64,000 nucleotides of DNA, from assembly GCF_053078305.1 (NCBI RefSeq), contig NZ_CP166879.1; one strand, given 5' to 3'. Shown in pieces: positions 1-11,313 of this stretch; the stretch's first letter is position 1, and each line of letters opens with the position of its first letter. The notes beneath the pieces are model-generated. The model searched no databases and had not been told where the DNA came from. It was given only the letters and a program-made list of their open reading frames with translations. A program made the translations under genes and the position numbers.

Positions 1-1
1 A

Positions 2-625
2 TTAATCCAGTTGCGTAATATCAAAAGCGGCGCGGTCGATCACCGCAATGATCTTTTTTATTTGTGCATCAGTGATATCGCTCTGGTTGACGCGTAAATC
101 CAGCACCGCTTTAAAATTATCCAGCGCCCGCTTCATTTGCGGGTTCTGGCGCAGCGCAGCACCAACGCAACGCGCTTTGATGCGTTCTTCAATCATCTCC
201 ACCTGTTCGCGGTTTTCTTCCAGCCACTGCGCGCCTTGTTCGGTCAGCGCAATCTGCTTCTTACCACCTTCCTCTTCGCGGATGGTAATCAGCGACTGCT
301 CCTGCAGAAAATCCAGCGTCGGGTAGATGACGCCCGGGCTTGGGGTGTAATTCCCCTGGGTTAGATTCTCAATCGCTTTAATCAATTCGTAACCGTGGCT
401 GTCATCGCGCGAGAGAATATCCAGAATCACCAGACGCAATTCACCGTGACCAAAGAAACGTTGCCGACGACCGCCGCCGCGACCGTGGCGACCACCGCAA
501 CATTGACCGTGTTCATGCTGGTGACCGTGTCCGCAGTGCTCGTGTTCTGACTTCTCACCTTTGCAGCAGCCCTCATGGCGTGGCTGGCCTTCATGTTTAC
601 AACACCCTTCGTGATGATGGCTCAT
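2..625 (-). CDS. yqjI: PadR-family metal-responsive transcriptional repressor YqjI
   Basis: 207-aa ORF. His/Cys-rich N-terminus (MSHHHEGCCKHEG...) followed by a PadR-type winged-helix region. Divergent from yqjH as in K-12. Confidence 0.93.
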   Translation of the reverse strand: MSHHHEGCCKHEGQPRHEGCCKGEKSEHEHCGHGHQHEHGQCCGGRHGRGGGRRQRFFGHGELRLVILDILSRDDSHGYELIKAIENLTQGNYTPSPGVIYPTLDFLQEQSLITIREEEGGKKQIALTEQGAQWLEENREQVEMIEERIKARCVGAALRQNPQMKRALDNFKAVLDLRVNQSDITDAQIKKIIAVIDRAAFDITQLD

Positions 626-644
626 ATCAGCCTCCTTTTGCTTA

Positions 645-660
645 ATTAGATATATCTAAT
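645..660. promoter_or_regulatory. Perfect 16-bp palindrome ATTAGATATATCTAAT, candidate YqjI operator
   Basis: Self-complementary 16-mer 20 bp upstream of the yqjI start. A near copy lies upstream of yqjH (876-890). PadR regulators bind palindromes. Confidence 0.5.
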
Positions 661-725
661 TTATATCTGATATGAGCGCTCTTGCAAGTGTAAAAATGAT
701 TTTTAAATGTGGACTCATCTCACAC

Positions 726-760
726 GTAGGCCGGATAAGGCGTTCACGCCGCATCCGGCG
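726..760. repeat. REP (repetitive extragenic palindromic) element
   Basis: gtaggccggataaggcgttcacgccgcatccggcg matches the E. coli REP consensus. Confidence 0.75.
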
Positions 761-841
761 TTGAGTAATGATGCCTGAGAAGAGGCGGTTCGTCTTGTCA
801 GACTATAGACATATCAGTTCTACAAATCGCTTGCATTTATC

Positions 842-862
842 ATGATTAACAATCATTATCAT
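842..862. promoter_or_regulatory. Fur box-like site in the yqjH promoter
   Basis: atgattaacaatcattatcat matches about 13/19 of GATAATGATAATCATTATC by eye. yqjH is a known Fur-regulated gene. Confidence 0.55.
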
Positions 863-875
863 TTGCGAAAATTAT

Positions 876-890
876 TTAGATATATCTGAT
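876..890. promoter_or_regulatory. Second copy of the TTAGATATATCT(A/G)AT operator-like motif
   Basis: ttagatatatctgat lies 23 bp upstream of the yqjH ATG and differs by one base from the palindrome at 645-660. Confidence 0.45.
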
Positions 891-912
891 TACCATCACG
901 AAGGCGATAACA

Positions 913-1677
913 ATGAATAACTCCCCCCGCTACCCGCAGCGCGTTCGCAATGATCTGCGCTTCCGTGAACTGACTGTGTTACGCGTTGAGCGCATCAGCG
1001 CCGGTTTTCAGCGCATTGTCCTCGGCGGCGAGGCGCTGGACGGTTTTACATCGCGCGGCTTTGACGATCACAGCAAACTCTTCTTTCCTCAACCTGACGC
1101 TCACTTTGTGCCGCCAACGGTAACGGAAGAGGGCATCGTCTGGCCGGAAGGACCACGCCCACCGTCGCGTGACTATACGCCACTGTATGACGAACTACGC
1201 CATGAACTGGCGATTGATTTCTTTATTCACGAAGACGGCGTCGCCAGTAGCTGGGCAATGCAGGCCCAACCGGGCGATAAACTCACGGTGGCAGGTCCGC
1301 GCGGTTCGCTGGTGGTGCCGGAAGATTACGCGTATCAGCTGTATGTCTGCGATGAATCCGGAATGCCCGCACTGCGCCGCCGCCTGGAAACGTTGAGCAA
1401 ACTTGCCGTTAAACCGCAAGTTAGTGCGCTGGTTAGCGTGCGGGATAACGCCTGTCAGGATTATCTCGCGCACCTTGATGGTTTTAATATCGAATGGCTG
1501 GCACATGATGAGCAGGCGGTAGATGCGCGTCTGGCGCAGATGCAAATCCCTGCCGATGATTACTTCATCTGGATAACCGGCGAAGGTAAAGTCGTTAAGA
1601 ATTTAAGCCGCCGCTTTGAAGCGGAACAGTATGACCCACAGCGGGTACGTGCAGCGGCTTACTGGCACGCAAAGTAA
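913..1677 (+). CDS. yqjH: NADPH-dependent ferric-chelate (siderophore) reductase YqjH/NfeF
   Basis: 254-aa ORF recognised as the E. coli siderophore-interacting FAD-binding protein. Position next to yqjI fits. Confidence 0.93.
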   Translation: MNNSPRYPQRVRNDLRFRELTVLRVERISAGFQRIVLGGEALDGFTSRGFDDHSKLFFPQPDAHFVPPTVTEEGIVWPEGPRPPSRDYTPLYDELRHELAIDFFIHEDGVASSWAMQAQPGDKLTVAGPRGSLVVPEDYAYQLYVCDESGMPALRRRLETLSKLAVKPQVSALVSVRDNACQDYLAHLDGFNIEWLAHDEQAVDARLAQMQIPADDYFIWITGEGKVVKNLSRRFEAEQYDPQRVRAAAYWHAK

Positions 1678-1696
1678 CTGATATATAAAAAGAAAA

Positions 1697-1723
1697 AGGC
1701 TGACGATTTCTCGTCAGCCTTTG
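1697..1723. terminator. Rho-independent terminator after yqjH
   Basis: aggctgacga-tttc-tcgtcagcct perfect 10-bp stem, A-run upstream and T-run downstream. Confidence 0.8.
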
Positions 1724-1730
1724 CTATATC

Positions 1731-1750
1731 TGGCCCTGCTGTCTTTGAAC
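1731..1750. repeat. Degenerate copy of the ileX 3' end (candidate attL remnant)
   Basis: tggccctgctgtctttgaac versus the tRNA 3' end tggcccctgctggacttgaac (10535-10555). By eye there is one indel and about three substitutions. Confidence 0.5.
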
Positions 1751-1803
1751 TGAATGCATATTTTGTTGATAAATAAAGATTATGTGTTTTTGATTTTCGT
1801 TTT

Positions 1804-1827
1804 GTATGCCTTTTTGTATGCCTTTTT
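1804..1827. repeat. 24-bp arm-type repeat (2 x GTATGCCTTTTT), left copy
   Basis: gtatgcctttttgtatgccttttt is identical to 10389-10412. Each copy lies tens of bp inside a putative island junction. Confidence 0.7.
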
Positions 1828-1985
1828 TGAAAAAGATACCCTTGTTGTTTGATCGTCGATAACGGGTATCAATGTGCACATGCAAATCGATGGCGTTTAT
1901 GTGTGCGCTGTCGAACGTTTGAAAATGGTTTTAGGGCGGTTTTAATGCTGGTTGATGTGGCGCTCTGTGGCGCTCGTTTTGGTGT

Positions 1986-2066
1986 GCTGGTGGCGGGGGT
2001 CGAACCCGCATACATGATCAGCCTGTACAGGCTGGCACCGACTCTACCCGTTGAGCGTACACCAGC
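1986..2066 (-). ncRNA. tRNA-like RNA 1 (canonical acceptor, D and T arms; aberrant anticodon arm; no encoded CCA)
   Basis: Minus strand has a 7-bp acceptor GCTGGTG/CACCAGC, U8-A9, and D arm GCTC-AACGGGTA-GAGT. T arm is GCGGG-TTCGACC-CCCGC. The central arm is the palindrome CAGCC-TGTACA-GGCTG (6-nt loop) flanked by extra nucleotides. Confidence 0.45.
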
Positions 2067-2086
2067 AAAAAAGCGATGAGGTTGTT

Positions 2087-2185
2087 GGCTGCTGGTGGTG
2101 GGGGTCGAACCCACATAAACATCCCGCTTTCTGGAAGCTATACAAGCGGACGCCGCTTTACCGATTAAGAGTACACCATACAGCC
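2087..2185 (-). ncRNA. tRNA-like RNA 2 (diverged paralogue of RNA 1 with extended acceptor-like helix)
   Basis: T arm GTGGG-TTCGACC-CCCAC. Terminal helix GGCTG..TGGTG / CACCA..CAGCC. UA plus a GG-containing D-like loop. Long central hairpin TCCGCTT...AAGCGGG. The 5' end coincides with the start predicted from the promoter at 2193-2221. Confidence 0.4.
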
Positions 2186-2192
2186 AGGTAAA

Positions 2193-2221
2193 ATAGTAAT
2201 CATGCGTTATGTGCGGGTAAA
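2193..2221 (-). promoter_or_regulatory. Candidate sigma70 promoter for the tRNA-like RNAs
   Basis: On the minus strand, TTTACC (2221-2216), a 17-nt spacer, then TACTAT (2198-2193). The predicted start near 2185-2186 is the first base of tRNA-like RNA 2. The weak -35 suggests activator dependence. Confidence 0.4.
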
Positions 2222-2260
2222 GTCTGTTTCGTCTGGTAGCACCAGATGAACGGGTATCAT

Positions 2261-2330
2261 TATTTCACCTGATTTCACGTGATTTCGCTTAATTTCACAA
2301 AAATCACCTTCTTTCACCTTCTTTCACAAA
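2261..2330. repeat. Seven helically phased TTTCAC (minus strand GTGAAA) repeats, about 10-bp period
   Basis: Seven consecutive decamers: tatttcacct, gatttcacgt, gatttcgctt, aatttcacaa, aaatcacctt, ctttcacctt, ctttcacaaa. They lie between the Mor-like gene and the promoter at 2193-2221. Confidence 0.7.
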
Positions 2331-2461
2331 AAACAAATCATCATTAAAGCGCCTGATTCGCTCTCTGATGCGTTTTGGTGTTTTTGTGGCGTCCGTGATG
2401 CCCTGAAAGGGGATTTTTGCGATAGCGGCGCAAATATAACGGTTGCTGCTGGTATCTGTGG

Positions 2462-2869
2462 TTAGTCTTGCGTGATTTTATTGGCGTGCTTCTTTCTCAG
2501 TCGTCGTATGATGTCGTAAATATGGGTTTCGGATATTGCGTACTCTTTGCGTAATGCCTGCAATTTTTCGCCGTTATCCCACCTGTAGTAAATCTCGTAT
2601 TCGCGCAATGCTGCGAAAAGTGATCTGCCTGTTGGAAGGTAAAGACTTCGCCCACCAGCATAGAAGGCGATTGCAGCGACAACCCGCTTTGCGATTCTGA
2701 AAGCGTCTGCCTCCTCCATGCCATTACGGGTAAGTTCCGCTACTGAATGCGACACGATATCAGCAAGCGAATCACACCATGCATCACCTGGTTTATCTCC
2801 GTTGTCTATGGCGTCGATGAATTTAAGCCGCTCGATGTCTTTTGGTACGTGATGGGTTTGCTCGTTCAT
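2462..2869 (-). CDS. Mor-family (phage Mu middle-operon-regulator-like) transcriptional activator
   Basis: 135-aa ORF. The C-terminal part (...YLPTGRSLFAALREYEIYYRWDNGEKLQALRKEYAISETHIYDIIRRLRKK) resembles the Mor/C HTH region from memory. Confidence 0.6.
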   Translation of the reverse strand: MNEQTHHVPKDIERLKFIDAIDNGDKPGDAWCDSLADIVSHSVAELTRNGMEEADAFRIAKRVVAAIAFYAGGRSLYLPTGRSLFAALREYEIYYRWDNGEKLQALRKEYAISETHIYDIIRRLRKKHANKITQD

Positions 2870-2982
2870 CCGGTAGCCTCTTGCGTTGGTGTATCTGGTC
2901 CTACCAGTTTAATTTAACGTCGCAATAAAACGATATACACGCACACAATCAGAAAAGCCGTCTGACTGTTCCGGTCCCGTGC

Positions 2983-3255
2983 TTACTTCTGGTAGCTACG
3001 CCAGATTTTTTTACATCTCCCTCCTATCCCCATTTCTGCGTAAGTGCGGTTTACTGCTTTCCTCAGGTCTGCGTAGTTCTCCTCTGGCGGCTCCGGTGGC
3101 CTCTGTGCCTTCCCGTAACATTCTGCCCTGCGCATTGCCACCCGTTCGCGTTCCCTGTCAGTCTCCACCAGCATCATCACTTCAGCCCATCGCGCCGCCG
3201 CTCTCCGGTAAAAGCCCTTCGCCTCCAGCTCTTCCGCTATGCTGTCATGTACCAT
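2983..3255 (-). CDS. Small PerC/Pch-like (or ANR-like) transcriptional regulator
   Basis: 90-aa ORF with motif LEAKGFYRRAAARWAEVM, which I associate with PerC/Pch-family activators. GAGGGG Shine-Dalgarno upstream. Confidence 0.45.
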   Translation of the reverse strand: MVHDSIAEELEAKGFYRRAAARWAEVMMLVETDRERERVAMRRAECYGKAQRPPEPPEENYADLRKAVNRTYAEMGIGGRCKKIWRSYQK

Positions 3256-3265
3256 CGTTCACCCC

Positions 3266-3676
3266 TCAGAACGGAATATTGTCACCGTAAGGGTCATCGC
3301 CTCCCACTGGTGGCTGATTACCCTGTGTGCCTGTGGTCCTGCGTCTGTTGCCACCTGGTCGCGCCGTTTTCGCACTGATTACGCTGTCTGCAATGACCTG
3401 ATAACCCTGCCGCGTTTCCCCGTTCTGTCCGGTCCACTGACTGACCTGCATCACACCGGATACGCTGATTACGTTGCCTTTCTCATGTCCTGCCAGTTGG
3501 TCGGCCTGTTTGCCAAATGCCAGGACAGACAGCCATAACGTTGCCTGCCCGTCCTGCGCCTGACTGCATGGCAGCGATACCGCCATACGTGCCAGCGTCA
3601 TCGGTGTGCCCTTACTGGTCTGTTTTGTCTGCGGGTCGTCAATCAGTCGCCCGTAAGCTGCTATCTGCGCTGTCAT
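3266..3676 (-). CDS. Single-stranded DNA-binding protein (island-encoded SSB)
   Basis: 136-aa ORF with an OB-fold-like N-terminal part, a Gly/Pro-rich linker and a C-terminal acidic tip ending DDPYGDNIPF (compare the SSB DDDIPF tail). Confidence 0.8.
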   Translation of the reverse strand: MTAQIAAYGRLIDDPQTKQTSKGTPMTLARMAVSLPCSQAQDGQATLWLSVLAFGKQADQLAGHEKGNVISVSGVMQVSQWTGQNGETRQGYQVIADSVISAKTARPGGNRRRTTGTQGNQPPVGGDDPYGDNIPF

Positions 3677-3777
3677 GATTCCACCTCTCCGGTTTTAACG
3701 TTGATGGTTGTTACCTGTTCCGCTTCTGCAATCTCCCGCTCTGTCAGCGTGGTAAAGTTTGCCGCTGCTGTGCTCAT
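3673..3777 (-). CDS. Possible 34-aa micro-ORF translationally coupled to ssb
   Basis: MSTAAANFTTLTEREIAEAEQVTTINVKTGEVES. Its TGA overlaps the ssb ATG (ATGA). No clear Shine-Dalgarno. Too short for the ORF track. Confidence 0.2.
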   Translation of the reverse strand: MSTAAANFTTLTEREIAEAEQVTTINVKTGEVES

Positions 3778-3916
3778 GAATGCACTTATCAGCCAGGGGG
3801 CTTTCGCGTGTCTTTCTGCCGTGTTGTGGCCCTTCGTTCATGAGCAAAACACTTAAATAAAACTAAAGTGATTTTCTGTGTTTTCGTGCTGCTCTGCTCT
3901 GTGTTTTTTTGCCGTT

Positions 3917-4120
3917 TACTCACCACTACTCACTTTTTTTACTCACTTTTTGGAATCGCTCACTTCGTCTCACCTGAGATTTTTGGTGTTTTTATGTGTG
4001 TGTTTTATAAGTGGTTTTTTACTACTCACTTTTTTGCCTATATACAGGTGAGAAAGTGAGTAATTTTGTTAATTTTTTGTAAAATTACTCACTTTACTCA
4101 CTTTTGCTCCTCACTTTTTT
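3917..4120. repeat. Iteron array, putative island replication origin
   Basis: At least 8 direct copies of (T)ACTCACTTT(T), for example at 3927, 3940, 4023, 4086, 4095 and 4109. Inverted copies (gtgagaaagtgagta) lie at 4048-4062. AT-rich spacers. The array abuts the stop codon of the RepA-like gene. Confidence 0.7.
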
Positions 4121-5516
4121 ACAGCGGTACTACGTCATCGCCGTCAATGCGTATAGTCTCGTCTTTCTCCAGTTTTGCTAACCATCGCCGCATGTTTTTC
4201 ACGTCATACCCAAGCCGTTTCATGTCGTCGCGCAACAACGAAATAGTGCACTTGTCGCCGTGCTGTGTGCGTGACCGGATGCAGCCCCATAGCGCGGTAT
4301 GGTTTTCCGTCTTGTTGCCAGCCTCCTCGATGCGCTCCACTTCAACGGGATGACGCGGCTTATCCACCACAACCAGAGACGTGATTAACTCCCCGTCAGC
4401 GTCGGTAAAAAGCTCAACTACCCGCAAATCGTAGGCAGCTTCTTTGAGTTCCTCTGCGTCCTTCATTTTGGTACATGAGATAACCAGCGCTTCGCTTCCT
4501 GCGTCCTCCCTGCGTATCCGGTATTCAGCATCCAGTGATGCACGAAATGCACTGGAACCACGCGCCCCCTTTGTTTCATCCTTGCCGGAATGGTGAACCA
4601 CCAGCACCGTTGCCCCTGTGCGCCGTTTCAGTTCGTCACACCCACGGATAAACGCCCCCATATCACGGGAATCATTTTCATCATTGCCACCAAAGCAACG
4701 CGCCAGCGTATCCAGAATAATCATGCGTACAGGTTTACCCGTTTCCCGTTCCACCTGGCGGGCAGCGATAACCATTTCATCAACATCAAGCGGGGCAGCC
4801 GGAAAGATGGGGCGGTTTACCAGATACAGATTTTTCACCTGCTCACCGTGCACAACCTCCCAGGCTTTTACACGACGCGGAACGCCGATACCGCCTTCAC
4901 CAACCACATAGAGAACAGCGCCATGCGCCACCCTGCGGCCTCCCCACTGGCGGCCCGTGGAAACGTGACACGCCCACGAACCCGCAAGGAACGATTTATA
5001 GGAACCGCTCGCCCCGTATATGCTGCACAGCGATACCGCCGGAATAATCCCCTTAACCACGTAATCCAGTTGCGTGTCATATCCGGCAGAACCAACGCTC
5101 ATCGGTAGCTTTGTTTTGCGCTGGTGGCCTTTTTCTTCCTGCTTTTCCCCGCGCTCCCGTTCCAGATATTCGCGCCAGTTCTCCCGCTTCTGGCTGTGCA
5201 TCCCATCGGGGTAGTAATTCGCATCCTGTACGCCTGCCGCTGCCAGTTTTTGCGCGATGGCATTAATATTTGATGGTCTGATATGGCTTGCTTTGTACAG
5301 CCGGACGCAATAGCGCCCCTCGTCAATGATTTTCGTGTCTGCCAGTTCTGCCAGTTGCTGCTCCCCAAGCCATACAGGTGGCACATTATCGCCAGCAAGT
5401 CGGCCCTCCTGCTCCTGCCACTGCTTCGCGTGTGCCCAGGCATCACTACCCACAAAAATAATGACCTCGGTCATTTTGTCGTAAGGCTGTTTTTTTAAGT
5501 TCGGTGCGCTTTTCAT
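4119..5516 (-). CDS. RepA-like RecA-fold replicative helicase/initiator (AAA_25-type)
   Basis: 465-aa ORF. Walker A-like GASGSYKS, Walker B MIILD, VLVVHHSGKD motif typical of RSF1010 RepA-like ATPases. Its start overlaps the upstream ORF stop (ATGA). Iterons lie immediately downstream. Confidence 0.7.
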   Translation of the reverse strand: MKSAPNLKKQPYDKMTEVIIFVGSDAWAHAKQWQEQEGRLAGDNVPPVWLGEQQLAELADTKIIDEGRYCVRLYKASHIRPSNINAIAQKLAAAGVQDANYYPDGMHSQKRENWREYLERERGEKQEEKGHQRKTKLPMSVGSAGYDTQLDYVVKGIIPAVSLCSIYGASGSYKSFLAGSWACHVSTGRQWGGRRVAHGAVLYVVGEGGIGVPRRVKAWEVVHGEQVKNLYLVNRPIFPAAPLDVDEMVIAARQVERETGKPVRMIILDTLARCFGGNDENDSRDMGAFIRGCDELKRRTGATVLVVHHSGKDETKGARGSSAFRASLDAEYRIRREDAGSEALVISCTKMKDAEELKEAAYDLRVVELFTDADGELITSLVVVDKPRHPVEVERIEEAGNKTENHTALWGCIRSRTQHGDKCTISLLRDDMKRLGYDVKNMRRWLAKLEKDETIRIDGDDVVPL

Positions 5517-5812
5517 TTCTTACCCCTGAATGCGTTAATCATCTTTTTCATCTTCTGTATTTTTGCCAGTGCCTTTACGTTGCTGGTGGGCACGTTACGC
5601 GGTACCGCCTGCACCAGAGAAAAATCACGGGAAAACTGATAAACAGGCATCACGCAGTCATATTCGTAGCCTTTACGGCGGTAGGTGACGCACCGCCCCG
5701 CCACGCCCTTAATCATTACCGTGCCGCCGTACTGGTCGCGGTAAATATCACCGCGCTTAAATTCAGGGCGAGGCTTGCCGCTGGCAGTTAAGCCAGTTTT
5801 TTTCATGTTCAT
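5513..5812 (-). CDS. Small basic protein, function unknown (possibly DUF4222-like)
   Basis: 99-aa ORF whose stop overlaps the replicase ATG, so it is operonic with the replicase. Confidence 0.5.
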   Translation of the reverse strand: MNMKKTGLTASGKPRPEFKRGDIYRDQYGGTVMIKGVAGRCVTYRRKGYEYDCVMPVYQFSRDFSLVQAVPRNVPTSNVKALAKIQKMKKMINAFRGKK

Positions 5813-5885
5813 TTTTTTATCCTTTGTTCTGGTCAGTTACGCCGTTGCTGCATAAATGCGGTTAGCGGTGCCTGTCGTTGCCTTA

Positions 5886-6200
5886 TCACGAATGGCGATA
5901 ATCAGCACTGATATCTCCGTTACGACAACGCCAGTTGTACACCTCCACAACCTCACTGAATCCGGCCACAAGTTCAGCCGTAACAGCGATGGAATCGCCC
6001 AGGCTGCGCAGTTCGTCCATGTCAGGATCAATGCTGTCACTCATGCCAGAAAGTAAGCGCCCTGTGATAGCCAGCCCTTCAAGCAGTTTGCGGGCGTAGA
6101 AATCAGCATCATCAAACATCGCTCTCGCTTCCCGTGCGTCAGCTGCTTTTATGGTTGTAACCAGTTGTTCAAGTATTCTGGTGTTACACACATCACGCAT
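5886..6200 (-). CDS. Hypothetical acidic protein translationally coupled to icd-like 1
   Basis: 104-aa ORF. Its ATG lies 5 nt before the icd-1 stop (ATGCGTGA, 6200-6193), the same geometry as P1 icd-ant coupling. Confidence 0.5.
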   Translation of the reverse strand: MRDVCNTRILEQLVTTIKAADAREARAMFDDADFYARKLLEGLAITGRLLSGMSDSIDPDMDELRSLGDSIAVTAELVAGFSEVVEVYNWRCRNGDISADYRHS

Positions 6201-6363
6201 GACTCACCCCCTCACGAATAAGGGTGACAAAAATCAGATGGGTGTGCGGAAGTTGTGCGCGTGCTTCGTGCTCAGTGGCAGCGGTAACGGTGAATATTGC
6301 AATGCTGCCTGTCAGGCACTGCATAAAGCGCCAGACAAAGTAAGGGCGTGCGGATACAGCCAT
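6193..6363 (-). CDS. Icd-like (host cell-division-inhibitor-like) small protein, copy 1
   Basis: 56 aa MAVSARPYFVWRFMQC...TVTAATEHEARAQLPHTHLIFV.... AGGAG lies 8 nt upstream of the ATG at 6363. The ORF track shows an in-frame 164-aa extension that I interpret mainly as RNA. Confidence 0.65.
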   Translation of the reverse strand: MAVSARPYFVWRFMQCLTGSIAIFTVTAATEHEARAQLPHTHLIFVTLIREGVSHA

Positions 6364-6371
6364 GTGAAAGG

Positions 6372-6586
6372 CTCCTATGTTTGAGGTAAGGAGTCTCGCT
6401 ACTACGCTGCTAAACATGGTGGCGAGACGTAACAGGGTTAGCAGACTGGCAACATAGAAACCAGCGAGCGCAAAGGCTCCCCCGTTACGCCCCGCCATAA
6501 TGCGGGTATGGGTAGGTTTACGGACACAAAAAAACCGCATATCGGAATGTAAGCGGCTGTCCGCTATGTTATTCAGGCTGCTAAAC
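6372..6586 (-). ncRNA. c4-like antisense RNA cassette 1 (targets, antisense core, SD-overlapping target)
   Basis: Plus-strand text: targets ctatgtt at 6564-6570 and 6375-6381, and ctgctaa at 6578-6584 and 6407-6413. Antisense aacatag at 6451-6457 and ttagcag at 6438-6444. Exact reverse complements. The distal target overlaps the icd-1 SD. Confidence 0.6.
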
Positions 6587-6649
6587 CCGGTCGCCATGTG
6601 GGTGACTCCGGCATCATACAGCCCGAAAGAAGAGGCGATCAACATGTTT

Positions 6650-6820
6650 TTATCCATGTGATGCCTCCTGACGGATACGGGCGACAAAAATCAGATGTGC
6701 GTGCGGCAGCCGGGCGCGTGCTTCGTGCTCAGTGGCAGCGGTAACGGTGAATACATCGATGTTACTGTGGTGGCACTGCATAAAGCGCCAGACAAAGTAA
6801 GGGCGTGCGAATACAGCCAT
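6650..6820 (-). CDS. Icd-like small protein, copy 2
   Basis: 56 aa MAVFARPYFVWRFMQCHHSNIDVFTVTAATEHEARARLPHAHLIFV.... AGGAG lies 8 nt upstream of the ATG at 6820. Confidence 0.65.
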   Translation of the reverse strand: MAVFARPYFVWRFMQCHHSNIDVFTVTAATEHEARARLPHAHLIFVARIRQEASHG

Positions 6821-6828
6821 GTGAAAGG

Positions 6829-7043
6829 CTCCTGTAGTGAAATTAAGGAGTCTCGCTACTACGCTGTCAAACATGGTGGCGAGACGTAACAGGGTTGACA
6901 GACTGGCACTACAGGAACCAGCGAGCGCAAAGGCTCCCCCGTTACGCCCCGCCATAATGCGGGTATGGGTAGGCTTACGGACACAAAAAAACCGCATATC
7001 GGAATGTAAGCGGCTGTCCGCTGTAGTATTCAGGCTGTCAAAC
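6829..7043 (-). ncRNA. c4-like antisense RNA cassette 2
   Basis: Targets ctgtagt at 7021-7027 and 6832-6838, and ctgtcaa at 7035-7041 and 6864-6870. Antisense actacag at 6908-6914 and ttgacag at 6895-6901. The backbone is nearly identical to cassette 1. Confidence 0.6.
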
Positions 7044-7106
7044 CCGGTCGCCATGTGGACGACTCCGGCATCATACAGCCCGAAAGAAGAGGCGATCAAC
7101 ATGTTT

Positions 7107-7295
7107 TTAAGCATGACTCACCCCCTGACGAATACGGGCGGCGAATACAGCGACACAACCGGACGGGCAACGGTTACGCGCTTCGCGTTCCGTCCAGGCG
7201 GTTACGTGGATGATTTGACGTTCTGACGTGCCAAAGGTGATAAAGCGCCAGATAAAGGCGGTTTGAGAATGTACGAGGGCAGGGGTAGTAGCCAT
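7107..7295 (-). CDS. Icd-like small protein, copy 3 (diverged)
   Basis: 62 aa MATTPALVHSQTAFIWRFITFGTSERQIIHVTAWTEREARNRCPSGCVAVFAARIRQGVSHA. AAGGAGG lies 8 nt upstream of the ATG at 7295. Confidence 0.6.
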   Translation of the reverse strand: MATTPALVHSQTAFIWRFITFGTSERQIIHVTAWTEREARNRCPSGCVAVFAARIRQGVSHA

Positions 7296-7303
7296 GATGG
7301 CAG

Positions 7304-7514
7304 CCTCCTTTATCGTTGGGATATACCCACCGCTGGAGGTTCCAATCTCGCTGGCGGTGGACTGCACGGAGTTGGAACTACTGGCGATAAAGGAAACCAG
7401 CCTGACCGAAGTCAGCCCCATACAGCCCACCATTGATAAGGTGTGCGTGTGCGCCGATACAAAAAAAGACGCGTTCGGCGTCTGTATCGCCTTTATCTCC
7501 AGCGGGGTTCCAAT
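7304..7514 (-). ncRNA. c4-like antisense RNA cassette 3 (diverged backbone, same architecture)
   Basis: Targets cctttatc at 7490-7497 and 7307-7314, and gttccaa at 7507-7513 and 7339-7345. Antisense gataaagg at 7386-7393 and ttggaac at 7372-7378. Strong hairpin GACGC-CGAAC-GCGTC plus U7 at 7461-7482. Confidence 0.55.
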
Positions 7515-7825
7515 CCCGACACCCGTTTTATGAGGTGCGCGGGAATCATAGCCATTTTTGATACTGGCGATCAACTGATTTTCTCTGGCGGGTATTTGGC
7601 GCGGATGCCTGTTACCTGTGGCAATATACACACGACTGTATACAATACACATCGGTTAACTCCTTATATTCCGTTGATGGCCCGTAGTGTTATTGCATTG
7701 CGGGTATTTTTTACCTGCCGTTAATTGAATGCGGCAAGGCATCACGACGGTTAACCCGTTTTGCATAACGTGAGGCGTTTTATTTTCTGCGCTGGTGGCT
7801 TTTATATTTCACATATGGGAATTTA

Positions 7826-8029
7826 TTATTCCTGCTGATAACGCTCCTCTACTTTCTTCTCAAGCCATGATTTCACCTCATCCTCAAACCAGCCAACGCG
7901 GCGTAATCCACGCTTAAAACCAGGAATAAATTCACCAGCCTTAACCATTGTGTCAATGCTCGTTGTACTAAGGCGAAGAAGATTTGCGACTTCTCGTTTT
8001 GTAAGGATTTTCTTTTCTGTAATGTTCAT
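7826..8029 (-). CDS. AlpA-family phage/island HTH regulator (excision/transcription control)
   Basis: 67-aa ORF. ...LTKREVANLLRLSTTSIDTMVKAGEFIPGFKRGLRRVGWFEDEVKSWL... matches the AlpA/Phage_AlpA pattern from memory. Confidence 0.8.
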   Translation of the reverse strand: MNITEKKILTKREVANLLRLSTTSIDTMVKAGEFIPGFKRGLRRVGWFEDEVKSWLEKKVEERYQQE

Positions 8030-8121
8030 ACTTTGCGTTCCTTTTGTTTCAGGCGCTAACTTGCCTAAACTTGTTCAAGGATATGCAAACACGGTAAAAG
8101 CTGGCATTGCGGAATATTACG

Positions 8122-8145
8122 AAAAAAGCCCGTAATATTACGGGC
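8122..8145 (-). terminator. Rho-independent terminator after the int-orf298 unit
   Basis: On the minus strand, GCCCGTAATATTACGGGC followed by TTTTTT, about 20 bp after the orf298 stop. Confidence 0.7.
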
Positions 8146-8166
8146 GGTCATATGTTCAGAAGTCTG

Positions 8167-9063
8167 TCAGTCGTCAACGTCTGCAAGCCACTTACCTATG
8201 CATGTTGGTGTGGCACCGATATCAACGCCTGCTTTGGTTAGTGCGCGGCTTAACTTGCTGTGACCGTTTTCAAGCGCCCTTCGTGGGTTTGACGCCTCTT
8301 CTTCTCCGGCTATAGCGGTGATTAGTCTTTTGATAACTCTGGCCTGAAGATTGGTTGTTTTCTTTGATGGGGGTGGTTTATTGATGTTTAATTCATCCAT
8401 GTTTTCAATAGAAGCGGTACGCCCTCCGTTTATGGCTAAATCTATCTCACTTCTGGAAATAAAAATATCGTTACGTGATATATCCCATCCCTGTAATAAA
8501 ATCGCAGCTTTAAAATCATCCTCGTCATCGTTATCGATTATCTGAATGTATTTAGTATTTGTTGTATCGTGAAATGATAATCTTTCAATGTCTGCGCTGT
8601 TAGCCTTTACATTAAGCAATCCATCAGCTTTAACATATATTTCTTTTGCGGGTGTTATTATTTGTGCGTTTTTTATCTCTGGCTCATCTTCAGCAAAAAT
8701 ATTCATGCTGAAATAATCACCATATGATGAGTAATGATAGTTTATGTTGAGTCCTGCATGTGCATAATAAAAAACATCTATTGGAGTGAGTAGCTTATTT
8801 ATAGATGTGGCATCAATGATTACATTGCAATATTCATTTGTGTAATGCTGGTATAATGTTTTATTAGCACTGATAAGCTCAGGCTTTACCCCTTCATAAT
8901 ACTTTAATGTCAGTTTTTCATTTATATTAATGCGATACAAAAAACGCATCCTCCTCGTAGCGATGAAATGAAGCAAATCATCAACGTCACACTCAAGCCT
9001 TCTGGCTGCCTTGTCTAACGGGTAATAATCCCTTTCAGGAAGGTTTATTTTTTTGTTTGCCAT
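8167..9063 (-). CDS. AT-rich orphan protein of unknown function (island cargo)
   Basis: 298-aa ORF starting 4 nt after the integrase stop. Its central part is visibly more AT-rich than neighbouring genes. I recognise no motif. Confidence 0.6.
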   Translation of the reverse strand: MANKKINLPERDYYPLDKAARRLECDVDDLLHFIATRRMRFLYRININEKLTLKYYEGVKPELISANKTLYQHYTNEYCNVIIDATSINKLLTPIDVFYYAHAGLNINYHYSSYGDYFSMNIFAEDEPEIKNAQIITPAKEIYVKADGLLNVKANSADIERLSFHDTTNTKYIQIIDNDDEDDFKAAILLQGWDISRNDIFISRSEIDLAINGGRTASIENMDELNINKPPPSKKTTNLQARVIKRLITAIAGEEEASNPRRALENGHSKLSRALTKAGVDIGATPTCIGKWLADVDD

Positions 9064-9067
9064 GCCC

Positions 9068-10348
9068 TTAACCGTTAACCATTTTTAACCCACGATAGCC
9101 ACCCGTGGCGCTTACGCTCCCGCTGGCAGCTGCCTCTACAAAATCCCCCCACCACGCCATTAACGGGCGTCGCTGCTCGAGATAGGTTGAGCGGTTGTAC
9201 GCACGGCGAACCTCGTTTTTATCTATGTGTGACAATGCCGCCTCGATTACGTCAGAGTCAAAACCTTGCTCGTTAAGTGCGGTACTTGCTATTGAGCGCA
9301 AGCCATGAGCAACCAGCCGCCCACTAAAACCCATGCGTTTTATTGCTGCGTTTGCTGTTTGTACGCACATATGGCGCTGCGGGTCGCTGTTGTGTGGAAA
9401 TATAAACTCACGATGCCCGCTTATTGGCTTCATGACGTCCAGAATGGCTAACGCCTGCTTCGAGAGTGGTATTACGTGTTCCCTGCGTTGTTTAAGTCTG
9501 TGCTCTGGTATGCGCCATTCCTTCACCTCAAAATCAATTTCACACCAGCGCGCGCCAGCTGCTTCACCTGGTCGGCAAATTGTCAGTAGCTGCCACTCAA
9601 TGACCAGCCGCGTTTGTCGTTCCACCCGTGCCGTTGCCAGCTTCTGCATAAATTCGGGGAGTTCTTCAGGGCGTATTGCTGGCATGTTCTTAACGCTTGG
9701 CGCGTTAAATGCCTTGCTTATCTCTGATGCCGGATTCGCGGCAATCATTCCGGTATTAACGGCGTAATACATGACCTCATTGATTCGCTGTGCTGTCCTT
9801 CTGACGGTATCTAATTTCCCCTGGGCGGCTAATGGTTTTAATGCTTCGATGAAATTGCTTGCTATCAGGTCTGCTATTGGCCTGTTACCGACTGACGGGA
9901 ATACATTACGCTCCAGCGAACGCCATATATCGCGTAGTGTATCTTCTGCGAGTCCTTGCCCTTTTTTAAGTTCAAACCAGAGCGTAGCTACATGCCTGAA
10001 GGTGTTCTCTCTCTTCATCACTTCACTAAGGCGCTGTTTCTCTCTGTGCTCTTTTGGGTCAATGCCACCAGAAAGAAGCGCTCTGTATTCGTCTTTTATC
10101 TTTCGCGCGCCCGCAATGCTGATTTCTGGATATGCGCCAATGCTTAACATGGCCCGTTTTTTTGTGTGTGGCTTGTAGTAGCGGTAACGCCACAAGCAAG
10201 AGGCGCTTTTGTGCTTAATCACCAGTTCCAGCCCTTCGCCGTCAGTGATGAAAAGGTCCTTTTTTTCGTTGCTGGCTTTTCGCTGGAGGCTTTTTATCGT
10301 TGCGGGTGATAAAGACTTAACTTTTTTGGTCACCGGTTCAACTCCCAT
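9068..10348 (-). CDS. P4-type tyrosine integrase (DUF4102 N-terminal arm-binding domain plus catalytic domain)
   Basis: 426-aa ORF. Catalytic-type motifs ICRPGEAAGARW, HGLRSIAST and LSHIDKNEVRRAYNRSTY (R...HxxR...H...Y). Lies next to a tRNA gene. Confidence 0.9.
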   Translation of the reverse strand: MGVEPVTKKVKSLSPATIKSLQRKASNEKKDLFITDGEGLELVIKHKSASCLWRYRYYKPHTKKRAMLSIGAYPEISIAGARKIKDEYRALLSGGIDPKEHREKQRLSEVMKRENTFRHVATLWFELKKGQGLAEDTLRDIWRSLERNVFPSVGNRPIADLIASNFIEALKPLAAQGKLDTVRRTAQRINEVMYYAVNTGMIAANPASEISKAFNAPSVKNMPAIRPEELPEFMQKLATARVERQTRLVIEWQLLTICRPGEAAGARWCEIDFEVKEWRIPEHRLKQRREHVIPLSKQALAILDVMKPISGHREFIFPHNSDPQRHMCVQTANAAIKRMGFSGRLVAHGLRSIASTALNEQGFDSDVIEAALSHIDKNEVRRAYNRSTYLEQRRPLMAWWGDFVEAAASGSVSATGGYRGLKMVNG

Positions 10349-10388
10349 AAGCTGTTAAAGGCATATGCAAATCTGTGTTTTTTCCGGC

Positions 10389-10412
10389 GTATGCCTTTTT
10401 GTATGCCTTTTT
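10389..10412. repeat. 24-bp arm-type repeat, right copy
   Basis: gtatgcctttttgtatgccttttt is identical to 1804-1827 and lies 41 bp upstream of the integrase start codon. Confidence 0.7.
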
Positions 10413-10435
10413 AATCTTGCTTATACGCTATCAAA

Positions 10436-10450
10436 CTGGCCCAAACTGAA
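10436..10450. repeat. Candidate right junction motif ctggccc-a-aactgaa
   Basis: Shares both heptamers with 1730-1754 (ctggccc-11 nt-aactgaa). Confidence 0.35.
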
Positions 10451-10454
10451 CAAT

Positions 10455-10492
10455 AAAAAACCCGCGTTCCTTGTCTGGCGCGGGTTTGCTTT
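10455..10492 (-). terminator. Rho-independent terminator downstream of ileX
   Basis: On the minus strand, AAACCCGCG-ccagacaaggaa-CGCGGGTTTTTT. Confidence 0.75.
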
Positions 10493-10531
10493 GTTTAACT
10501 TGCCGTAACTTGTCTTTACTTGGTGTCGATT

Positions 10532-10607
10532 TGGTGGCCCCTGCTGGACTTGAACCAGCGACCAAGCGATTATGAGTCGCCTGCTCTAACCACTGAGCTA
10601 AGGGGCC
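10532..10607 (-). tRNA. ileX: tRNA-Ile2 (anticodon CAU, lysidine-modified)
   Basis: 76-nt GGCCCCTTAGCTCAGTGGTTAGAGCAGGCGACTCATAATCGCTTGGTCGCTGGTTCAAGTCCAGCAGGGGCCACCA. Full cloverleaf, encoded CCA, located between mug and yqjH as in K-12. Confidence 0.93.
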
Positions 10608-10731: not shown

Positions 10732-11238
10732 ATGGTTGAGGATATTTTGGCTCCAGGGTTACGGGTCGTGTTTTGCGGTATCAACCCTGGGCTTTCATCC
10801 GCCGGGACTGGTTTTCCCTTTGCTCATCCGGCAAATCGCTTCTGGAAGGTGATATATCAGGCCGGGTTTACCGACCGTCAGTTGAAGCCGCAGGAGGCAC
10901 AGCATCTGCTGGATTATCGTTGTGGCGTCACCAAACTGGTAGACCGTCCAACGGTGCAAGCCAATGAAATTTCAAAGCAAGAGCTACACGCAGGTGGGCG
11001 TAAGCTGATTGAAAAAATTGAAGATTATCAGCCGCAAGCGTTGGCGATTCTGGGTAAACAAGCATATGAACAGGGATTCAGCCAGCGCGGTGCACAGTGG
11101 GGGAAACAAACGCTCAGCATTGGTTCGACGCAGATTTGGGTGCTGCCAAATCCCAGTGGTTTAAGTCGCGTTTCACTGGAGAAACTGGTTGAAGCGTATC
11201 GCGAGCTGGACCAGGCGCTGGTGGTGCGTGGGCGATAA
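10732..11238 (+). CDS. mug: G/U mismatch-specific DNA glycosylase
   Basis: 168-aa ORF recognised as E. coli Mug (GINPGL motif). Confidence 0.93.
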
Positions 11239-11280
11239 AAAACGCCACCGAAAAGGTGGCGTTTGTGCAAAGGGACAGGT

Positions 11281-11313
11281 GCCGGGTGCGGCGTAACGCC
11301 TGATCCGGCCTAC
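11281..11313. repeat. REP element
   Basis: gccgggtgcggcgtaacgcctgatccggcctac, between the convergent mug and rpoD. Confidence 0.55.

Follow-up and report, generated by a model that had tools for sequence, protein, structure and literature searches.

A helically phased GTGAAA array in an Escherichia coli satellite-like island as a possible mimic of the packaging site of Sp18-type Mu-like phages

Several satellites are known to carry the packaging signal of their helper phage: the cohesive-end site (cos) in P4 and in phage-inducible chromosomal islands (PICIs), and the headful packaging site (pac), together with their own TerS, in Staphylococcus aureus pathogenicity islands (SaPIs). For satellites of transposable phages, no such signal is known to us, and the recognition of pac in phage Mu is itself poorly defined. 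Here, we analyzed a 64,000-nt stretch of Escherichia coli DNA (contig NZ_CP166879.1 of assembly GCF_053078305.1; the whole stretch is referred to below as the window), which holds an island of ∼8.8 kb with the makeup of a phage satellite. Between a Mor-family activator gene and two tRNA-like elements of this island stands an array of seven GTGAAA-type hexamers in helical phase. A comparison with Sp18-type Mu-like phages makes it somewhat probable that the array is the satellite's cis-acting packaging signal, an amplified mimic of the pac site of these phages, which would make it a new variant on the known strategy of satellites that carry a helper packaging signal.

The island resembles described satellites in part. 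Like P4, which uses a P2-type cos and Delta/Ogr cross-activation, it has no structural genes, and the traits that we propose the two share are a helper packaging signal and a late-activator homologue; C4/CI RNAs, Icd-like genes, and an AlpA/Vis-type gene are further points of likeness. Unlike in P4, no P2/P4 cos, Sid, Psu, or Delta was recognized in the island, its activator is of the Mor/C and not the Ogr family, and its presumed helper is a transposable headful phage. The E. coli PICI EcCICFT073 likewise has int, alpA, and a replicase with its origin, and it is transferred in helper capsids thanks to a packaging site of the helper type close to one of its ends (PMC6092414). That site (used with Rpp redirection) is a lambda-type cosN with a non-phage cosB and the helpers are lambdoid, whereas the array consists of phased repeats. 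The sole described satellites with a Mu-like helper are the Pasteurella multocida PICIs PmCI172/PmCI86, for which a Mu-like phage is the proven helper (PMC6092414). They differ from the island in that they belong to another host genus, encode a capsid homologue, and make small capsids; their packaging signal has not been identified, so that a sequence-level comparison with the array is not available. In the searchable literature, we came upon neither an E. coli satellite with a Mu-like helper nor a pac mimic for such a satellite.

The array reads, on the minus strand, GTGAAAGAAG GTGAAAGAAG GTGATTTTT GTGAAATTAA GCGAAATCAC GTGAAATCAG GTGAAATAAT, with the first two units as perfect tandem copies. 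On the plus strand, TTTCAC starts at 2263, 2273, 2293, 2312, and 2322, with TTTCGC at 2283 and AATCAC at 2302, which corresponds to spacings of 10, 10, 10, 9, 10, and 10 bp between the seven hexamers at 2263-2327. Tandem Repeats Finder (TRF) returned a period of 10, and although the spacers are heterogeneous, the hexamer and the 10-bp register are kept. These results bear out the original prediction, made from the letters of the window, of a GTGAAA array phased at about 10 bp over 2261-2330 that begins ∼130 bp past the stop of the Mor-family gene; the distance from that stop codon to the nearest hexamer end is 134 bp. In the list of open reading frames (ORFs) of the window, none of ≥40 aa overlaps the array. 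TTTCAC occurs only 33 times on the plus strand of the 64 kb, and a scan of the same 64 kb found no other site at which any non-trivial hexamer recurs at least four times within 70 bp. The array is therefore non-random, and chance can be excluded as its source.

Two independent links name the phage partner of the array. Among 50,697 phage records, the island's Mor-type protein is closest (47% aa identity) to the C-type late activator encoded by a Mu-like phage that was found inserted in Shiga toxin (Stx) phages; Mu C itself is 31% identical. A distant blastn search of window positions 1700-4200 against all phage records returned a nucleotide match for the tRNA-like element only, and in the same Mu-like phage, whose tRNA-like element is 86% identical to tRNA-like RNA 1. 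This 40-kb phage is the Sp18 type of O157 Sakai. The activator and tRNA-like RNA 1 both have their closest phage homologues in this one phage type, and the case made below for the array depends on these independent links to it. Sp18 was reported to be intact and active, with DNA that is efficiently packaged (PMC2669165).

Oriented from the repressor/transposase end, the first 92 nt of the phage read TGTAACCAGGTGAATCATTTGATACCAACGAGGGTTTTAGTGAAAGGAGGTGAAATCACCTGTAAGATACTGAAATAAAACAGGTGATG. The sequence TTTGATAC(C) is found in three copies at each phage end, arranged as L1-L3 and R1-R3 are in Mu, and these copies are recognizable as transposase sites. Between L1 and L2, and at this end only, GTGAAT, GTGAAA, GTGAAA, and CTGAAA start at nt 10, 40, 50, and 70, all in one 10-bp register. 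The best match of the array in the 40-kb phage, by ungapped comparison and by blastn-short on both strands, falls in this interval, at left-end nt 34-58. The phage TTTTAGTGAAAGGAGGTGAAA and the array TTTTTGTGAAAGAAGGTGAAA are identical at 19 of 21 positions (E = 0.04 against the 40-kb phage), a match that includes the T-run ahead of the first GTGAAA. When a position-weight matrix built from the seven array units was used to score pairs 10 bp apart, left-end nt 40 was the top phage site on either strand (22.5 bits; next best 16.2), and none of 278,412 positions of E. coli control DNA reached 16 bits. The order of the units is also alike. The phage has GTGAAAG.AG followed by GTGAAATCAC, and the satellite has two units of the first type, one degenerate unit, and four of the second (A-B in the phage, A-A-x-B-B-B-B in the satellite). 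Directly after the last repeat, the satellite has a TGATACC heptamer that resembles the core of the phage transposase site L1 (TTTGATACC), which in the phage comes after GTGAAT at nt 10-26. The heptamer is rare (9 in 128 kb) and is mutated to TGACACC in one island variant (L038). The sequence that follows the satellite's last repeat, TAATGATACC, is reminiscent of phage GTGAATCATTTGATACC, and we give this little weight. In five Sp18-type prophages with differing repressor regions, left-end nt 1-92 are almost invariant and divergence sets in from nt 93.

Searches for similar arrays elsewhere returned unrelated sequences. When the shared 21-mer was used as a pattern to scan genomes, one for each species, it gave chance matches in AT-rich genomes only, and none in Enterobacterales. 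An exact scan of IMG/VR for four phased TTTCAC units found 26 unrelated tandem repeats, mostly in AT-rich or giant viruses; one candidate (L018) proved to belong to an unrelated element of 55% GC, with an integrase next to it. Unrelated viral contigs of 44% GC provide an independent case of a phased TTTCAC array, in which five units spaced 10 bp apart lie directly upstream of a TATAAT-like box (L009 at 7715-7790, and likewise L010, L011, L023, and L030).

The position of the match bears on its possible function. Mu pac was reportedly mapped by Groenen & van de Putte (1985) and Harel (1990) to roughly nt 32-58, between L1 and L2, and phased short repeats are found in this region of Mu as well, with GGAT at nt 44, 54, and 64. 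Packaging of Mu begins at the left end (PMC5977238). The array is like this region in that both consist of short direct repeats in a 10-bp register, and unlike it in that the satellite copy does not stand at a transposon end, has no functional set of transposase sites, comprises seven units against two to four, and belongs to a tyrosine-recombinase element. In Mu-like phages, the L1-L2 spacer always contains three or four helically phased short direct repeats (L037 1-130; L069 1792-1925; L079 441-575; L085 1729-1920; L032 40877-40968), and the repeat differs by phage: Mu has GGAT, the Sp18 type GTGAA, L085 GTGAT, and L079 GGGAA/GGAAT.

Natural recombinants show which phage module the spacer repeats follow. 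The protein gp27, annotated as the terminase small subunit (Pfam Phage_Mu_Gp27; L032:26984-27565 in the Sp18 type), is 57% identical between Mu and the Sp18 type. Three Sp18-type contigs combine TTTGATAC ends with GTGAAA at +22 and +32 from L1 and a gp27 that is 100% identical to that of the Sp18 type; Mu combines Mu-type ends with the three GGAT repeats and its own gp27. UViG_2526164633_000017 has TTTGATAC ends and a transposase 79% identical to that of Sp18, combined with a Mu-type spacer (CCGGGAGGA...GGAT x3) and a gp27 100% identical to that of Mu. UViG_2850808358_000012 has ends of a third type (TTCAAGATA), a Mu-like spacer, and again a gp27 100% identical to that of Mu. The available contigs of phages with intermediate gp27 (72-76% identity) stop short of the left end. 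Judged from these recombinants, the L1-L2 spacer repeats follow gp27, and so the packaging module, and not the type of transposase, as a pac site should. From the reported location of Mu pac and this covariation with gp27, we infer that the left-end block of Sp18-type phages is their pac site.

Several features of the island accord with the use of a borrowed packaging signal. The array has its motif in common with the presumed packaging region of the helper, and the island itself has no terminase, portal, or capsid families that could be recognized with Pfam and PHROGs, nor a P2/P4-type cos site, even when 3 mismatches were allowed. The island therefore needs a helper and a cis-acting signal. 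When a Sp18-type helper enters lytic growth, the satellite would excise by means of Int and AlpA and replicate from its own origin. The small terminase of the helper, the gp27 homologue, would bind the array as it does its own pac site, and the large terminase would cut nearby, so that a headful of satellite concatemer is packaged; a headful would amount to roughly four to five satellite copies, provided that replication after Int/AlpA excision yields concatemers. The C-type activator of the satellite may act on the late promoters of the helper or respond to the same signals, in the manner of P4 Delta and P2 Ogr.

The presumed helper is also present where the island is. Sp18-type phages were found in 11 of the 13 island-bearing genomes, as compared to about 230 of 5426 genomes overall (∼4%; Fisher exact p = 4.5e-14), although the association is confounded by shared lineages of Shiga-toxin-producing E. 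coli (STEC) in which the phage is common, so that this p value overstates it. Two independent Sp18-type markers, the tRNA-like element and the first 500 bp, each give an extra match in the same 11 genomes, and in three of the 11 the second site was directly seen as a Mu-like left end. Strains with both elements include OkiPb01678 and 2012EL-2448.

A number of observations weigh against a packaging function. Two of the 13 island genomes have no Sp18-type phage. The support assembled here is sequence comparison throughout, and we know of no mapping of pac in any Sp18-type phage. Because gp27 covaries with the whole late region, another late-region protein could bind the repeats. Packaging of the Mu type normally starts from integrated copies beside L1, whereas the satellite has only a partial L1-like heptamer that is mutated in one variant, and a start in situ would run out of the island. 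The contiguous similarity is short, and a blastn search with the array alone against all 50,697 phage records (E up to 10) gave no match. Finally, six island variants have ∼8% variable columns overall and 6% in the array, which is too little divergence, and too uniform a conservation, to show selection on the repeats. An exhaustive search for the Mor-type protein found one cluster at 50% identity, with the next relative at 40%; homologues are confined to one narrow E. coli lineage, and for this reason there are no diverged islands for a covariation analysis.

The region is carried by only 13 of 5426 complete E. coli genomes, in at least four backbones. One, almost identical to the island in the window, has the RepA helicase (RepA/AAA_25) and lies at the ileX site (L001). 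A second, in mdtP, has the same replicase and three tRNA-like copies (L002); a third, between dinD and yicC, differs in its integrase and has a toprim+DUF927 primase (L003, L038); and a fourth, again in mdtP, has a D5_N/DUF5906 primase (L005). Across these backbones, with their three different replicases and three integration sites (ileX, mdtP, and dinD-yicC), the array is almost identical and keeps its position between the Mor-type gene and the tRNA-like genes. Because this module is retained while replicases and integrases differ, we assign the array to a SSB-PerC-Mor-array-tRNA-like module; for the same reason, it appears to be neither an iteron nor an att subsite.

Other explanations of the array have to be considered alongside a packaging signal. 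The array may bind the same helper protein for a different purpose, either by titrating the terminase or an end-binding protein so as to interfere with the helper, or by sensing late expression of the helper for timing. The motif-level evidence is the same as for packaging, seven sites against the two to four of the phage would form an efficient sink, and satellites commonly interfere with helper packaging (PMC6092414). However, no other packaging signal is recognizable in the island, so that its packaging would call for a further site that has escaped notice, and interference and self-packaging can coexist. We consider titration or sensing as the sole purpose unlikely.

Similarly doubtful is a role as an upstream activating array for a promoter of the tRNA-like RNAs, in which a Mor/C-type activator, PerC, or a host factor that polymerizes on one face of the helix, or bending by phased A3 tracts, would boost a weak -35 element. 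The original prediction had placed TTTACC-17-TACTAT on the minus strand, with a start at the first base of tRNA-like RNA 2. Both hexamers are present (Table 1), and the start near 2185 abuts the 5′ end of this element as annotated by the Prokaryotic Genome Annotation Pipeline (PGAP) in the almost identical island (L001 10391-10485, equivalent to window 2090-2184). The claim that this is a plausible promoter stands in part. Six island variants all have the same -10 and -35 hexamers, with 4 variable positions among the 17 of the spacer, but the match to TTGACA-17-TATAAT is only 8/12 (4/6 in the -35 hexamer), falls below the promoter-scan threshold, and is of a quality that the window reaches 4.8 times per kb. 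At this site, a promoter of the tRNA-like genes is plausible but statistically weak, and the region has no match in the Sp18-type phage.

An activating role would fit the location of the array 42 bp upstream of the -35-like hexamer, the invariance of the two hexamers, the start that abuts the tRNA-like element, the Mor-type gene that always accompanies the array, and the unrelated viral contigs mentioned above (L009-L011), in which a TTTCAC array stands just upstream of a -10-like box. The Fis-site and bent-DNA regions upstream of stable-RNA promoters are comparable as phased elements ahead of a tRNA-type gene promoter; the array differs from these in that it keeps a specific G(T/C)GAAA core, not mere A-tracts, and in that the same core occurs at a non-promoter site of the phage. 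The homologous tRNA-like gene of the phage, however, has a promoter-like TTGCCT-18-TAAAAT that ends ∼8 nt before its 5′ end, and no GTGAAA array upstream. Moreover, the phage left end has the same repeats at a promoterless site that lies downstream of the convergent repressor gene, and thus the left-end block is not a promoter element in the phage. Promoters that depend on Mor or C have a -10 element but no usable -35, and their activator sites are dyad-symmetric and centered near -43, whereas the array consists of seven direct repeats at about -78 to -142. The only dyad is a palindrome centered ∼54 bp upstream of the putative start, TCTGGTAGCACCAGA, which is kept in five of six island variants (L038 differs at the center base) and has no counterpart in the Sp18-type phage, and four of six positions of the -35 consensus are present. 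We could define no shared late-promoter motif by eye in the intergenic regions of the phage. Given a phage promoter that lacks the array, an array of direct repeats far upstream, and a motif found at a non-promoter site of the phage, an activator array is not supported, and the earlier suggestion of an activator-dependent "late" promoter, with the array as the activator site, gains nothing from these comparisons.

A still less probable explanation is a relic without function: recombination would have captured a piece of a Mu-like left end, and slippage of a 10-bp unit would have expanded it. In its favor are the two perfect tandem units (GTGAAAGAAG twice), and the variants have diverged too little for constraint to be demonstrated. 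Against it, the array keeps its place in no fewer than four island backbones, at three sites in the chromosome; hexamer and register are retained across heterogeneous spacers; and three separate helper-derived features are found in one module.

Least probable is a role in replication, recombination, or partition (as a crr-like second iteron cluster, integrase/excisionase arm sites, or a P1-type centromere): the repeats are indeed direct and helically phased, a cis region for replication lies apart from the origin in P4, and four units read ATTTC(A/G)C, which we take to be the box A heptamer of P1 parS (ATTTCAC in the ParB box A), but the array is the same with three unrelated replicases and three integrases at different sites, the iterons on the replicase side are of another motif (ACTCAC), the distance to att is >500 bp and varies with tRNA-like copy number, and the box B (TCGCCA) and cognate ParB that accompany the box A heptamers and integration host factor (IHF) site of a P1/P7-type parS are missing, as TCGCCA is absent from the array and its immediate surroundings and the island has no gene for ParB. 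Among the alternatives that had been proposed to a promoter function, partition is thereby disfavored, and a packaging or nucleoprotein site is favored by the comparisons.

The array and the other features of the island are collected in Table 1. The island lies between E. coli nfeR and nfeF (window 1-1700) and the tRNA gene ileX (10532-10607), the 3′ end of which is copied imperfectly at the far end of the island. All island genes are on the minus strand, and past the Mor-family gene the order is array, 15-bp palindrome, putative promoter, and two tRNA-like elements.

Table 1. Features of the satellite-like island and of the array region, in window coordinates
Feature	Position	Strand	Remarks
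Seven phased hexamers, proposed pac-site mimic	2263..2327	-	Sequence, TRF, hexamer scan, phage left-end match
T-run ahead of first GTGAAA (minus strand)	2328..2335	-	Part of 21-nt phage match
TGATACC heptamer directly after last repeat	2253..2259	-	Uncertain role
Palindrome between array and -35 hexamer	2232..2246	.	Perfect 6-3-6; sequence
Putative sigma-70 promoter	2193..2221	-	TTTACC (2221-2216), 17 nt, TACTAT (2198-2193); start near 2185
tRNA-like RNA 2	2090..2184	-	PGAP "tRNA-OTHER" in almost identical island
tRNA-like RNA 1	1985..2066	-	PGAP "tRNA-Tyr"
Mor/C-family late-activator homologue, 135 aa	2462..2869	-	Pfam Mor E=3.5e-23; PHROG "late transcriptional activator"
SSB, PerC-family, and Mor-family genes, in series	within island, after iterons	-	
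ACTCAC(T) iteron cluster, ∼10 repeats in both orientations, with 31-nt inverted repeat	3900-4120		Just downstream of RepA-type helicase gene
RepA-type helicase gene	4119-5516	-	
DUF4222 protein gene	within island	-	
Three tandem C4/CI-type antisense RNA units, each with isrK-like element and Icd-like ORF	6193-7652	-	
alpA-like helix-turn-helix (HTH) gene	7826-8029	-	
298-aa ORF	within island	-	No family match
Integrase gene int	9068-10348	-	
Whole satellite-like island, ∼8.8 kb	1731..10531	-	att duplication ∼1731-1751; other end at ileX 3′ end

The island has an integrase gene, an AlpA-type regulator, its own replicase and origin, an att duplication, a length on the order of ∼10 kb, and no virion genes, as is seen in integrative satellites. 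The region of the C4/CI-type units comprises two 457-bp units at 87% identity and a third; the C4/CI RNAs score 72-78 bits in Rfam, each unit has a weak c4-a1b1 target match, and the region reads as a triplicated P4-type immunity region. The iteron cluster is probably the satellite replication origin. Taken by its gene content, the island is an integrative phage satellite with P4-type immunity, and because the P4 genes sid, psu, and delta were not found in it, it is not a canonical P4-like element. Near both island ends are tandem repeats of GTATGCCTTTTT (1792-1827 and 10389-10412), which are probably arm-type sites of the integrase. In the flanking host DNA, sub-threshold Rfam matches to naRNA4, of the repetitive extragenic palindromic (REP) type, were seen at 729-804 and 11236-11310.

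The tRNA-like RNAs fold as cloverleaves with a canonical T arm and a 4-nt loop on the "anticodon" arm. ARAGORN called neither element as a tRNA, and the Rfam tRNA match of tRNA-like RNA 1 is weak (35 bits); the two are evidently not decoding tRNAs. Their counterparts in Sp18-type phages occupy one fixed intergenic site, between gp30-like and G-like late genes and antisense to them. Other Sp18-type prophages have an 80%-identical counterpart of tRNA-like RNA 2, which lies ∼18.2 kb from their left end, the same position as that of the phage's tRNA-like element. Islands have one to three tRNA-like copies, some of which are chimeric; besides those of the window, the elements compared are at L002 9226-9530 and L004 5996-6082. 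The RNAs might serve as decoys, as sites of recombination, or as signals for processing. A 37-nt stretch downstream of the Mor-type gene (2372-2408) shares 65% identity with both tRNA-like genes over their 3′ flank and T-arm region and may be a decayed third copy.

Taken together, we give an even chance to the broader proposal that this island family is the first E. coli satellite of transposable (Mu-like) phages, one that hijacks the headful packaging of Sp18-type phages by means of a seven-unit pac copy and carries, in addition, a homologue of the late activator C and copies of the helper's tRNA-like RNA. A by-product of this proposal would be the first pac "code", in which three to four phased 4-6-mers stand between L1 and L2 and their identity follows gp27. 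If the proposal is correct, it would place a helper-satellite pair in STEC, where Sp18-type phages are common and active, and would offer a comparative handle on what small terminases of the gp27 type read. A simple 70-bp element should then make any replicon transducible by Sp18-type phages, and headful packaging from the array might also move flanking chromosomal DNA.

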